Positions 25,473 to 59,146 of a stretch of DNA of 64,000 bases are shown piece after piece (positions within the stretch are counted from its first letter, which is position 1; each line of letters begins with the position of its first letter). Position numbers and translations under genes: made by a program. Under the pieces are notes generated by a model. The model ran no database searches and was not told the origin of the DNA. It was given only the letters and a program-made list of their open reading frames with translations. The stretch is from Candidatus Omnitrophota bacterium. GTDB lineage: Bacteria; Ratteibacteria; UBA8468; MWAK01. Location: NCBI GenBank assembly GCA_043826355.1, contig JBDRQI010000011.1, forward strand, positions 21,418 to 85,417. The letters are read 5' to 3'.

Positions 25473-25549
25473 AGTACACTCCTTTTTTAAACAAGCAATT
25501 ATGTAGTATTGTAGCGGTGCGATTTATCGCACGTATTGTAGTGTTCTGA

Positions 25550-25670
25550 AAGTGGGCGAGACAGGACTTGGCGCCGTTCGGCTTTCACTGCGCCTCAGGT
25601 CGGCCCCCCGCTGGTATTGCTCCTTAATCAGTCGCAATATACCTGACTTCGCTCCTTTCAAGTCCTGTCT
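25550..25670 (-). ncRNA. tRNA-3'-end-associated structured module (copy 2), unknown function
   Basis: A 12-bp inverted repeat (25559-25570 / 25659-25670) closes an 88-nt core homologous to 57142-57225. The distal arm is part of a 21-nt exact copy of the tRNA-Val 3' end. Confidence 0.55.
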
Positions 25671-25686
25671 TCAGGATGCTTAGAAG

Positions 25687-25759
25687 TGGGCGAGACAGGA
25701 CTTGAACCTGTGGCCTTTCGGATGTAAGCCGAATGCTCTGCCAGCTGAGCTACTCGCCC
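25687..25759 (-). tRNA. tRNA-Val (anticodon TAC)
   Basis: Folded by hand into a cloverleaf: acceptor GGGCGAG/CTCGCCC, D stem GCTC/GAGC, anticodon loop CTTACAT, T arm ACAGG-TTCAAGT-CCTGT. CCA is not encoded. Confidence 0.9.
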
Positions 25760-57046: not shown

Positions 57047-57118
57047 GGCGGTGTAGCTCAGCGGTAGAGCAAGCGGCTCATACCCGCTATGTCTGGGGTT
57101 CGAATCCCCGCACCGCCA
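57047..57118 (+). tRNA. tRNA-Met-type (anticodon CAT; elongator Met or Ile2, not distinguishable here)
   Basis: Cloverleaf folded by hand: GGCGGTG/CACCGCC acceptor, GCTC/GAGC D stem, anticodon loop CTCATAC, T arm TGGGG-TTCGAAT-CCCCG. CCA is not encoded. Confidence 0.9.
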
Positions 57119-57132
57119 CATTGTAAGATTAC

Positions 57133-57243
57133 TGGGATTCGAAGAGAGCGAAGTCAGGAGCTGCGACGAGAAGGAGCAGCGACAGCGAATGGCCGACCCG
57201 AGGCGCAGTGAAAGCCGAGCGGCGCCGAATCCCCGCACCGCCA
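57133..57243 (+). ncRNA. tRNA-3'-end-associated structured module (copy 1), unknown function
   Basis: tgggattcg pairs with cgaatccc. The 84-nt core is homologous to that of the tRNA-Val locus. The module ends in an exact 18-nt copy of the tRNA-Met 3' end (57226-57243 = 57101-57118). Confidence 0.55.
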
Positions 57244-57314: not shown

Positions 57315-57481
57315 GGTTTGTTTTTTTTGCAACACTTCGCGGAGTGACAGCAACAAAACAAGCAGTACGACGGCATGAGTAGCCGTGGCTCACCCGAATT
57401 TAGGGTGAGAACACGGAGAGTCTCATGACGGAGTTGCGTAGTTTTGTCTGGCACGCAGCGTGTGTTGCAAAAAAAACAACC
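57315..57481 (+). ncRNA. ~160-nt extended hairpin element, copy A (upstream of dnaX)
   Basis: The terminal inverted repeat ggtttgttttttttgcaacac / gtgttgcaaaaaaaacaacc encloses arms colinear with 34773-34936 (reverse complement). Confidence 0.6.
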
Positions 57482-57490
57482 GAACGCCCT

Positions 57491-59146
57491 ATGGGATACC
57501 AGGTGCTTGCCTTAAAACACCGGCCCAGAACCTTTTCGGAAGTTCGCGGCCAGGAGCAGATCACCACTGCGCTGACCAGAAGCCTGGCGGAAAAACGGAT
57601 TGCCAACGCGTATCTTTTTTCCGGCCCCAGGGGCGTGGGTAAGACCTCGGTTGCCAGAATCCTGGCCCGAAGCCTTAACTGCGTCAACGGGCCGCTTCCG
57701 GAACCTTGCAATGATTGTGAGTACTGCCGGGAAATCCTGGAGGGCCGCAATCTGGATTTTTTGGAAGTTGACGGCGCCAGCAATCGGGGGATTGACGACA
57801 TAAGGGCTATCAATGATAATACCCGCTTTATGCCGATTAAGAACCGGTATAAAATCTACCTGATAGATGAAGTTCATATGCTGACCGACCCTGCTTTTAA
57901 CGCAATCCTAAAAACCCTGGAGGAGCCGCCGGAACATGCCAAGTTTATCTTTGCCACCACCCATCCCGACAAACTTCCACCAACCATTGTCTCCCGCTGT
58001 CAGCGTTTTGATTTTCACCTTATTTCAACCAATGAAATCACCCGCCACCTGGCTGAAATTGCCGGAATGGAAAATATTCGGATAGAACCAGCCGCTTTAT
58101 TGCGTATCAGCCAGTCGGCGGCCGGTTCTTTTCGCGATGGGCTCTCAATTCTTGACCAGCTGGCTTCGTTTTGTTTCGGCGAGCAGATAACAGCGCTTGA
58201 CGTGGAAAAGATGTTGAGCCTGGTGCCGGAAAAAATTTATCTGGACGCGATTCAGTTGTTCCGTTCCGGAAATAAGCGGGGTTGCCTGGAGTTGGTCGCC
58301 CGGGTTTCTCAGTCCGGTTACGGCCTTTTCCAATTCGCTTCCGGGGTCCTGGAGTTTGCGCGCCACCTTGTTTTAATCAAAGCCGGAGCAGGGGACCTGG
58401 CAACTGACGCGGTTACCCCTGAATCGGCGCAAACCCTGACCGGGCTCGCCGGCCAGTTTACCATGCCGGAACTCTTAAGTCTGCTGGAAAAACTTGCCGA
58501 AGAACGCGACAGGTTAAAACACGAAGACCTGCTTCAGATCCGTCTGGAAACAATCTTTTTGAAGATGGCTGAGATTTTTGGTAAATCGGAAAAAGTAATT
58601 ATTGAGCCGGTTATTCTGAAAGCGGAACCGGTGCTCAAAAAACCTGTTTTGGAAAATCAGGCAGAAGCGGCTGCCGTCAGAAAAACAATAAAAACGGAAA
58701 AAGGGGCGCCGGAAGAGGTTGCGCCGGAAAGACCGGCAACCGACTTGTGGCAGTTATTCCTGGAAGAGGTCGGCAAGGAAAAGCCGTTTCTTTTGCCGAC
58801 TTTAAAAGCCGGGCGGCTGAAAAAAATGGAAGCGGTTCACAACGGAAAAACGGTGCACCTGAGTTTTCGGCGGTCGTTTGAAGAAGGACTCTTAAAAAGC
58901 AACCGGGCGGTTCTGGCTGAAATCTGGTCCCGAAAATTTGATTCCGGAAACGTATTATTCGAAACCGTCATTGAAGAGGGAAAAAAGTTCGATGAAGCCA
59001 GGGTTCGGCCGCGCCATTTAAAAAGCGAACCCGGCGAATCGGGGCACTCTGCTTCGGCCAGTCTTATTCCTGAAGAAGAAGACCTTGTGCGGCGGGTTCT
59101 GGGAATGTTTGACGGAGAGGTAACATCCATTAAAAAGGAGATTTAA
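57491..59146 (+). CDS. dnaX: DNA polymerase III subunit tau (gamma/tau)
   Basis: MGYQVLALKHRP start typical of DnaX. GPRGVGKTS, Zn module CNDCEYC, DEVHML and VSRCQRF motifs. The ORF-track start 57425 lies inside the hairpin element. Confidence 0.93.
   Translation: MGYQVLALKHRPRTFSEVRGQEQITTALTRSLAEKRIANAYLFSGPRGVGKTSVARILARSLNCVNGPLPEPCNDCEYCREILEGRNLDFLEVDGASNRGIDDIRAINDNTRFMPIKNRYKIYLIDEVHMLTDPAFNAILKTLEEPPEHAKFIFATTHPDKLPPTIVSRCQRFDFHLISTNEITRHLAEIAGMENIRIEPAALLRISQSAAGSFRDGLSILDQLASFCFGEQITALDVEKMLSLVPEKIYLDAIQLFRSGNKRGCLELVARVSQSGYGLFQFASGVLEFARHLVLIKAGAGDLATDAVTPESAQTLTGLAGQFTMPELLSLLEKLAEERDRLKHEDLLQIRLETIFLKMAEIFGKSEKVIIEPVILKAEPVLKKPVLENQAEAAAVRKTIKTEKGAPEEVAPERPATDLWQLFLEEVGKEKPFLLPTLKAGRLKKMEAVHNGKTVHLSFRRSFEEGLLKSNRAVLAEIWSRKFDSGNVLFETVIEEGKKFDEARVRPRHLKSEPGESGHSASASLIPEEEDLVRRVLGMFDGEVTSIKKEI

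Follow-up and report, generated by a model that had tools for sequence, protein, structure and literature searches.

The window analysed here is a stretch of 64,000 nucleotides (nt) from contig JBDRQI010000011.1 (positions 21,418 to 85,417, forward strand) of a Candidatus Omnitrophota bacterium. It carries a tRNA-Met(CAT) and a tRNA-Val(TAC) gene, and directly 3' of each of them stands a small non-coding module that ends in an exact second copy of that tRNA's own 3' end. The tRNA-Met gene does not encode the CCA end, and an extended -10 promoter-like sequence, TGAGTATAAT, lies about 40 nt 5' of it and is kept in the related Ratteibacteria locus L126 (L numbers designate loci throughout). The features of the first module, in which A1 and A2 are the two direct-repeat copies, A' the inverted segment and P1 to P3 the predicted helices, are as follows.

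57047..57119 (+): tRNA-Met(CAT) gene, host of module 1 (ARAGORN; Rfam tRNA, 69.2 bits)
57101..57118 (+): A1, tRNA-Met positions C56-A73, left copy of the direct repeat (tRNA alignment)
57119..57132 (+), 14 nt: spacer CATTGTAAGATTAC, whose first base is N74, just past the discriminator (sequence)
57133..57141 (+), 9 nt: A', TGGGATTCG, antisense to tRNA-Met positions 56-64 (sequence)
57142..57225 (+), 84 nt: conserved, GC-rich core (alignment, RNAalifold, covariation in 119 copies, covariance model 110.7 bits)
57142-57158 (+): core junction AAGAGAGCGAAGUCAGG (RNAalifold)
57160-57164 with 57176-57180 (+): core hairpin P2, with GCGA...GAGC loop (RNAalifold)
57183-57192 (+): core junction CAGCGAAUGG (RNAalifold)
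57194-57204 with 57214-57224 (+): core hairpin P3, with internal tandem GA/GA and loop GCAGUGAAA (RNAalifold)
57226..57243 (+): A2, exact second copy of tRNA-Met positions 56-73, of which the first 8 nt are the 3' strand of P1

The last 8 nt of A' (57134-57141) form the 5' strand of the closing stem P1, with 57226-57233 as partner, and A' together with the following AA is complementary also to U54-U55 plus A1. The 18-mer shared by A1 and A2, CGAATCCCCGCACCGCCA, was found in the window at these two positions only, even with up to two mismatches allowed (0.01 matches expected), and the bases after the two copies differ (CAT versus TAT). We interpret A2 as a target-site duplication. The module is preceded by lptD (or an lptD-like gene), upstream of tRNA-Met, and followed by dnaX. 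The second module lies on the opposite strand.

25686..25759 (-): tRNA-Val(TAC) gene, host of module 2 (ARAGORN; Rfam)
25684..25704 (-): A1, tRNA-Val positions 56-73 plus CTT (repeat search)
25670..25683 (-): spacer CTAAGCATCCTGAA (sequence)
25659..25669 (-), 11 nt: A', GACAGGACTTG, antisense to tRNA-Val positions 56-66 (sequence)
25571..25658 (-), 88 nt: core (covariance model 110.2 bits)
25550..25570 (-): A2, exact 21-nt second copy (repeat search)

The 21-mer CAAGTCCTGTCTCGCCCACTT thus occurs at 25684-25704 and at 25550-25570, followed by CTTC and CTTT, respectively. The neighbours are glmM, before tRNA-Val, and rpmA, after the module. The tRNA-Val core belongs to another subfamily than the tRNA-Met core, and its module is orthologous to the tRNA-Val module of the Ratteibacteria metagenome-assembled genome (MAG) SO_2017_LW3_138 (L042), with which the window shares a DnaX of 72% identity. 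For each of the core boxes, GAGCGAAGTCAGG and GGCCGACCYGAGGCGCAGTGAAAGCCGARCGGCGC, the 64 kb contain exactly two occurrences (0.00-0.03 expected). A preliminary description of this DNA, made from the sequence itself, had reported the 18-nt repeat, spacer, A' and core behind tRNA-Met and the same layout, built from its own local sequence, behind tRNA-Val. Both observations were borne out, far beyond chance (two exact matches for the repeat), as was the statement that no integrase, transposase or conserved open reading frame (ORF) is present at the modules.

Copies elsewhere were sought by exact-pattern scans of genome and metagenome collections, followed by a hidden Markov model (HMM) of the core, which together yielded 276 core matches in 229 loci. 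The hosts, under the names given by the MAG submitters, were Candidatus Omnitrophota (at least 14 MAGs), Candidatus Ratteibacteria (4) and candidate division TA06 (2), in addition to MAGs named only "bacterium". The same core stands behind tRNAs that represent 17 or more amino-acid families, and each has a repeat of its own. A covariance model built on 39 copies scored the two window copies at 110-111 bits and other copies at up to 122 bits. Matches in Streptomyces, Micromonospora and similar genomes were discarded as chance, the second box being absent. In a search of the whole window against Rfam 15 at the gathering threshold only the two tRNAs passed; with E values up to 10 the module regions gave noise only, namely Pseudomon-Rho at 16 bits (cut-off 45) and miRNA fragments. 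No description of the module emerged from searches of the literature, in which literal sequence strings were used as well; the only string matches were unrelated PCR primers.

Structure prediction with RNAalifold on the 39 copies revealed a three-way junction in which P1 is formed by A' and A2. The consensus comprises a 14-nt junction GAAGRGAGCGAAGU, a P2 loop within GCGA...GAGC, a short junction CAGCGRRUGG, and a P3 of the form CG-A-CCC-GA-GGC / loop / GCC-GA-G(C)GG-CG with an internal tandem GA/GA. Covariation was counted on 119 model-aligned copies (115 distinct), in an alignment fitted to the model: standard pairs made up 95.9% of cells, compared to 79.8% in column shuffles (none of 500 as high) and 33-46% in slid controls. 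Changes on both sides were observed in 24 of 27 pairs, including all seven pairs of P1, and a MAFFT-based count gave the same covariation pattern. In P2 and P3, G-U pairs were far more frequent than A-C (10 and 13 cases at two of the pairs, for instance), which places the fold on the sense strand, that of the tRNA. Long forms carry additional hairpins, located inside the P2 loop (L196), after GAGCG and between the junction and P3 (second units of L266 and L279), inside P3 (L022), or between the core and A2 (L140, L189).

Several known RNA motifs were compared with the core and rejected. By eye, the core motifs of the hammerhead ribozyme (CUGAnGA/GAAA) are absent; the likeness to group II domain V (GAGCCGUAU) is confined to a few variants and the stem is wrong; and for the RNase P P4 strand (GAGGAAAGUCC versus GAGCGAAGUCAGG) the partner strand is missing and the motif differs among subfamilies. 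A classical kink-turn in P3 was set aside, as a continuous helix that contains a bulged A and tandem GA agrees better with RNAalifold and with the compensatory changes in L022. A second core type with the same tRNA-arm architecture was also observed, of the form A' - GAGAACC..GGTTC - GAGCCGAC ... GAGACCGTGCG ... GCAC; the tRNA 3' end comes next, beginning at A58. This type stands alone behind tRNA-Gly (L255:6730-7000 and L173:1190-1500) and is nested between core and A2 in L140 and L189, as an extra domain of the main family.

Position and repeat statistics were obtained for the 150 cores with enough flanking sequence. In 117 of them a tRNA gene lies on the same strand at most 400 nt upstream, so that genome-wide copies do adjoin tRNAs, as the preliminary description had anticipated; most of the remaining cores are preceded by tRNA 3' halves, by interrupted copies of a tRNA or by masked sequence, and a single core, at most 110 nt downstream of a tRNA, was found on the opposite strand. 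In 109 of the 150, the core is followed by 14 nt or more that exactly repeat an upstream stretch, and this repeat starts at C56 of the T-loop. The repeat has a sharp length floor at 18 nt (18 nt in 18 cases, 19 nt in 31, 20 nt in 13, 21 nt in 6, and shorter in 2), and lengths of 26 nt or more reflect tandem arrays. It reaches the discriminator N73 and usually ends within two bases past it; the post-transcriptional CCA is not carried. A' ends opposite C56 and pairs over 7-12 nt. Among the 88 modules that are first in their array, a perfect 8-nt match between A' and the tRNA was found in 63, and a perfect 17-nt second copy likewise in 63. The spacers measure 12-50 nt, are pyrimidine-rich and have subfamilies of their own. 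The travelling unit consists of spacer, A' and core, about 105-125 nt and up to about 260 nt in long forms; it sits directly after the tRNA discriminator, in the orientation of the tRNA, and is followed by a duplicate of target positions 56 to 73-75. In addition, at a tRNA-Tyr gene (L221) and at tRNA-Met genes (L209/L265), a spacer and an A'-like inverted copy of the T-arm occur without a core, and these are probably remnants of partly deleted modules.

A direct repeat from the T-loop to the tRNA 3' end is what an integrase island would leave as an attL/attR scar, since the attachment (att) sites of T-loop-class integrases span the same segment. Against such a scar stand the presence of the same core behind many tRNAs, without cargo or integrase, and the absence of split cores with cargo inside among the loci found; nor was an integrase-bearing island family with these ends found. 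The related idea of a self-spliced or protein-spliced intron in the T-loop draws on copies of a different build, in which the tRNA copy is interrupted in or before the T-arm. In these variants, referred to here as type B, a tRNA copy that runs as far as the T-arm comes first, then a hairpin CTGAAATC...GATTTCAG, then the core and part of the tRNA 3' end, with an intact tRNA 40-90 nt downstream. They were observed, in several genomes, at tRNA-Ser(cga) (L174, L215, L180, L281/L282), at tRNA-Pro(ggg) (L097, L141, L206) and at tRNA-Glu(ctc) (L024, L138), and the truncated copy is identical to, or one base off, the intact gene of the same genome. The interrupted copies lack the full acceptor strand and an intact copy always accompanies them, so that splicing would be neither needed nor productive, and the intron was rejected. 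Scar and intron, taken together as one alternative, appear extremely improbable.

Modules were also found after tRNA 3' halves that start in the anticodon loop and have no 5' half near them (L012, L233, L228, L238, L213/L214, L020, L007, L107/L140); at L233, brxL of a bacteriophage exclusion (BREX) system is among the next genes. Islands probably integrated in the anticodon loop of tRNA genes that carried a module, and these loci would be the displaced ends of such islands.

Comparison of closely related loci showed that whole units are gained or lost. L190 has two identical units and L125 and L204 have one, with flanks 100% identical and a difference of one 125-nt unit. Among 241 arrays, 17 had two detected cores, 5 had three and 2 had five. 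The most informative case is the intact tRNA-Ser(cga) gene, which carries a long-form unit in Omnitrophota MAG DG_1_6.bins.57 (L281) and none in MAG DG_2.bins.114 (L282). More than 1 kb of flank is 100% identical between the two, and the difference is exactly spacer, A', core and a 20-nt repeat from C56 to C75. The more distant orthologous loci L174, L215 and L180 are all empty as well. Since the sister locus and three outgroup loci lack the unit, a gain in L281 is the most parsimonious reading of the alignment. The preliminary description had suggested looking for empty sites in relatives, and these loci supply them, together with the orthologous tRNA-Met site of LW3_138, which is empty (L126) in a genome whose tRNA-Val site is filled (L042).

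The 261-nt insert of L281 is 97.7% identical to a unit of the same MAG at L326, which overlaps the end of L266. The similarity extends over the spacer (TTTACTTCTTTGAAA versus TTTTTCTTCTTTGAAA) and also over A' (AGGATTCG versus GGGATTCG). Read across the contig break, the donor-like unit is apparently the second unit of a tRNA-Ala(ggc) array. The tRNA-Ala and tRNA-Ser(cga) genes have the heptamer CGAATCC at positions 56-62 in common, and the repeat that flanks the new copy is Ser-specific. Spacer, A' and core thus travel together, and A2 is made from the target. The element proposed in the preliminary description, one that targets or copies tRNA 3' ends, is refined accordingly: the 3' copy alone derives from the target, and A' and the spacer are borne by the element and not copied anew at each target. 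The same comparison ruled out an earlier notion that the spacer is the local tRNA trailer, which had been based on a weak match of 6 of 7 positions to the empty tRNA-Met site. Irregularities at the junction fall right after position 62, namely ATCC|ATCC in L142, TCC|TCC in L011 and 1-2 filler bases in L048 and L042, and they fit a microhomology joining of the element-borne heptamer to the target.

Exchange between resident copies was observed directly. A gene-conversion patch of five substitutions within about 12 nt, confined to P2 of an upstream module, distinguishes L281:4900-5010 from L282 in otherwise 100% identical sequence. In one MAG, identical 84-nt cores stand behind tRNA-Leu, Ala, Ser, Lys and His with differing arms; the nearest neighbour of a core came from the same MAG in 30 of 57 cases, and the mean pairwise core distance was 0.19 within MAGs and 0.31 between them. 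The argument that identical cores prove recent transposition is weakened by this conversion. Recombination alone could even be invoked for the whole pattern, with ancient modules homogenised by conversion and unequal crossing-over and with no present-day mechanism of insertion; the conversion patch, the one-unit changes of arrays and the identity of cores between local arms all agree with it. It cannot, however, fill a site that is empty in the sister and in three outgroups and at the same time make a Ser-specific 20-nt duplication, and it leaves the first spread to at least 17 isoacceptor families unexplained. We therefore regard it as a rather improbable account.

Regarding expression, no terminator-like site was found between tRNA and module, and the promoter-like TGAGTATAAT of tRNA-Met is conserved, which makes cotranscription of tRNA and module likely as judged from sequence. 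Regarding occupancy, 161 of 222 tRNAs carry a module in loci that were fetched for containing one, a figure biased by that ascertainment. An early impression that most tRNA genes carry the module (30-33 of 43) suffered from the same bias and was abandoned. After removal of one module-bearing tRNA per locus, the bystander tRNAs with a module numbered 4 of 65 by the strict HMM and about 13 of 65 when long forms recognised by eye were included, that is, an occupancy of about 6-20%. Poor hosts were tRNA-Thr (0 of 4) and tRNA-Arg (8 of 26), and many of the empty tRNA-Arg genes have CG or CT, not CC, at positions 61-62. Genes for tmRNA (transfer-messenger RNA), considered as targets, were absent from the loci. 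In the best-sampled MAGs at least 10-11 tRNA loci are occupied, so that occupancy is substantial but patchy.

Taken together, these results point to a new family of small, non-coding, non-autonomous repeat elements that reside in tRNA 3' trailers and insert as mobile units, a reading to which we assign a probability of about 55%; our confidence in any particular enzyme is much lower. The preliminary description had offered a miniature non-autonomous element at tRNA 3' ends as one of two options, and this option is partly supported by the same-strand 3' position of the copies, their local 18-21-nt ends, the gain and loss of single units and the donor-like copy. The other option, a competitor RNA that mimics the tRNA 3' end and acts against the acceptor strand or the processing enzymes, is possible on structural grounds.

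The proposed mechanism would run as follows. The element has no promoter and always stands right after a tRNA, for which reason it would be transcribed together with the tRNA. Processing of the tRNA 3' end of the RNase Z type, at N73|N74, would free an RNA that begins with the spacer; such an origin of the 5' end fits the beginning of the unit at N74 and a repeat that never stops before N73. The freed RNA would fold into the three-way junction, with the T-loop/T-stem heptamer as its closing stem, and the folded RNA, or a copy of it, would be pasted into a tRNA gene whose heptamer at positions 56-62 (CRANYCC) matches the P1 of the element. Annealing at the heptamer, a staggered break at 55|56 and about 73|74, and fill-in would produce the duplication of 18-21 nt. 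The acting enzyme is not encoded beside the element, and the data would agree just as well with a route at the DNA level, in which an enzyme that is Cas1-like or structure-specific acts in trans. The tRNA would be left intact, which would explain why the element is tolerated.

Several points weigh against insertion as a mobile unit. No mobilising enzyme (integrase, transposase or recombinase) was found in the module neighbourhoods; the reverse-transcriptase motif PQG..SP...YxDD was present in 0 ORFs in 1.5 Mb of module-bearing loci, and viral contigs, searched with two patterns, held no true copy. All-against-all clustering of the ORFs around modules gave no recurrent protein partner other than housekeeping proteins (ABC ATPases, GroEL, RNase PH, LptD, pilins and similar). 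The MAGs that provide the decisive filled/empty pair have low coverage, and the donor-like copy is assigned to tRNA-Ala across two contigs. Gene conversion alone can yield identical cores behind different tRNAs, and deletion between direct repeats alone can yield empty alleles. P1 extends beyond the shared heptamer more often than by chance, reaching 10 bp or more in about 30% of copies, so that A' is partly tuned to its own tRNA, by selection or by templated correction. Finally, in the interrupted-tRNA variants three compensatory changes (positions 54, 56 and 57; CUGAAAUC/GAUUUCAG) preserve the hairpin that A' forms with the upstream copy, while P1 is weakened, and a pure parasite has no obvious need of such a hairpin.

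The last two points speak for a cis-acting RNA that is useful to the host, in the tRNA precursor, and that works as a strand-exchange switch, its mobility-like behaviour being a by-product of the direct repeats. In such a switch, A' with the invariant AA would pair either with U54-N64 of the tRNA, blocking the cloverleaf, or with the decoy copy, forming P1 and closing the core, and tRNA maturation would depend on whether the folded core is stabilised by a ligand or protein; this would be compatible with mobility. Both alternative pairings are available in nearly every copy, and the core looks like an aptamer or a ribonucleoprotein RNA, with invariant junction bases, two GA motifs and variable expansions. 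Moreover, the tRNA-Leu(caa) genes of L125 and L012 have nearly identical spacers but differ in the T-loop, and A' and A2 follow this difference. The patchy occupancy, with its few occupied bystanders and poor Thr and Arg hosts, argues against a general role, however, and so do an orthologous tRNA-Met without module, arrays of up to five units that include decayed members, and a fresh insertion at a site empty in all relatives. The tRNA would also be made and folded before A' emerges, and its invasion would consequently be slow. On balance we consider the switch an unlikely explanation of the family, with enough in its favour to be kept in view.

The module could also be read as a guide RNA for an enzyme of the TnpB or Cas12k type, in which the core would serve as scaffold, the 18-21 nt at the 3' end as guide, and the universal GGTT of the T-arm as a protospacer-adjacent or transposon-associated motif. 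A structured scaffold is indeed followed by 18-21 nt identical to DNA next to GGTT. CRISPR-associated transposons (CAST) of type V-K use short guides and a GGTT-type motif to home to tRNA genes, and TnpB guides correspond to the DNA that flanks the right end of the element. On the other side, no effector gene lies beside any of about 240 arrays, the tRNA gene of the host, 14 nt upstream, would itself be the target, pairing in P1 takes up 7-12 nt at the start of the would-be guide, and no match to Rfam or to a known scaffold was obtained. This reading has very little probability in our judgement.

A bolder version of the mobile-element reading is put forward tentatively and is rather doubtful at this stage: the family may be mobile at the RNA level, as a bacterial counterpart of a short interspersed element (SINE) or as a small ribozyme-like RNA, and/or it may act as a switch through which the folding of the tRNA is tied to a signal that the core senses. 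If the bacterial SINE or the switch were true, it would be a class of tRNA-linked genetic element without described counterpart. Mobility would imply a new parasite lifestyle, with no gene and no promoter, housed in the trailer of an essential and highly expressed gene; the host gene would express the element, the host enzymes would probably trim it, and the copied gene end would spare the host damage. In addition, the core is a widespread, strongly covarying new fold in candidate phyla about which little is known. It has about 85 conserved nt, two GA motifs and expansions of a modular kind, and it is a candidate ribozyme, protein-binding RNA or sensor. The family also raises the question of how an 18-21-bp T-loop duplication arises without a recognisable recombinase. 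In practical terms, the modules will mislead predictions of tRNA ends, att sites and islands in such genomes, and the one-unit polymorphisms are usable as strain markers.

Two further observations concern the genes next to the modules in the window. On the minus strand, the tRNA-Val module lies within 25473-25685, between tRNA-Val and rpmA (for ribosomal protein L27; 25221-25472), with about 77 nt to the start codon; no terminator-like site was found on that strand in this interval, and the module may be part of the rpmA leader. Downstream of the tRNA-Met module, an irregular hairpin of about 170 nt (57326-57495, +) stands directly 5' of dnaX, with the closing stem GGTTTGTTTTTTTTGCAACAC / GTGTTGCAAAAAAAACAACC. 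It is conserved in the Ratteibacteria locus L126 and in two Omnitrophota MAG contigs (L127, L129), and RNAalifold predicts 60 pairs, 8 of them with compensatory changes. No Rfam match was obtained for it at E values up to 10, and the mechanical start of the dnaX ORF, at 57425, falls within it. This hairpin may be a divergent RNA resembling that of the signal recognition particle (SRP) or 6S RNA.

Among known systems, integrative elements of tRNA genes that use a tyrosine integrase at the T-loop resemble the module in the flanking tRNA 3' repeat, the intact tRNA and tandem insertion at one site. The module differs in its insert of about 105-260 nt (107 nt between the tRNA-Met repeats) and in having no integrase or cargo, and an element-borne attP cannot give one core behind at least 17 tRNA families with their own repeats. 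An intron of the tRNA would not be preceded by a complete tRNA, as the module is, or have an intact copy always downstream of the interrupted one. SINEs and other target-primed retroelements are alike in being non-coding and structured, with a tRNA-type promoter and subfamilies, and in an 18-21-bp duplication that is fixed at the 3' junction and ragged at the other end, the repeats among the copies being 18-23 nt long, with filler or microhomology at the junction. The module differs from them in its bacterial host, in lacking an A-tail and an internal promoter (that of the upstream tRNA gene being borrowed), in having a specific tRNA segment as target, and in loci free of a reverse-transcriptase motif. 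An RNA intermediate would agree, indirectly, with the sense-strand fold, with a unit that begins at N74, where tRNA 3' processing cuts, and with the lack of a terminator after the tRNA.

MITEs (miniature inverted-repeat transposable elements), repetitive extragenic palindromic sequences (REP) and bacterial interspersed mosaic elements (BIME) are, like the module, small, abundant, intergenic, lineage-specific, structured and cotranscribed, and they are mobilised in trans. Unlike MITEs, the module has no terminal inverted repeats of its own, the sole inverted repeat being A' versus the target copy, and instead of a 2-10-bp duplication it has one of 18-21 bp; unlike these families in general, it is a three-way junction rather than a simple hairpin and keeps a strict position and orientation to tRNA genes. 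Casposons and the repeat duplication of CRISPR arrays, which depend on the Cas1 family, share staggered integration that leads to long target duplications, and some casposons use tRNA 3' ends with 14-15-bp duplications; the module lacks Cas1 and terminal inverted repeats, and its insert is a folded, RNA-like unit. The omega-RNA of TnpB and the homing CRISPR RNA (crRNA) of Cas12k likewise place a scaffold before a 3' segment equal to adjacent or target DNA, at tRNA 3' ends with GGTT on the 5' side, whereas the module has no effector gene, holds part of its would-be guide in P1 and lies 12-50 nt from its own target.

The non-coding RNAs of retrons are also closed by terminal inverted repeats beside a conserved AGC-type motif, and the module differs in having no adjacent reverse transcriptase, dnaX and rpmA being the genes downstream in the window. 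Riboswitches and attenuators, finally, share the covarying folded core, the variable closing stem and the alternative upstream partner, and a constant position, here 3' of tRNAs; A' with AA is complementary both to tRNA positions 54-64 and to the downstream copy, in mutually exclusive pairings, and the alternative partner is a tRNA T-arm rather than a terminator or a ribosome-binding site. The finding is real and general, and none of the families with which it was compared matches it; a new kind of structured, tRNA-linked repeat element is the most fitting category for it.

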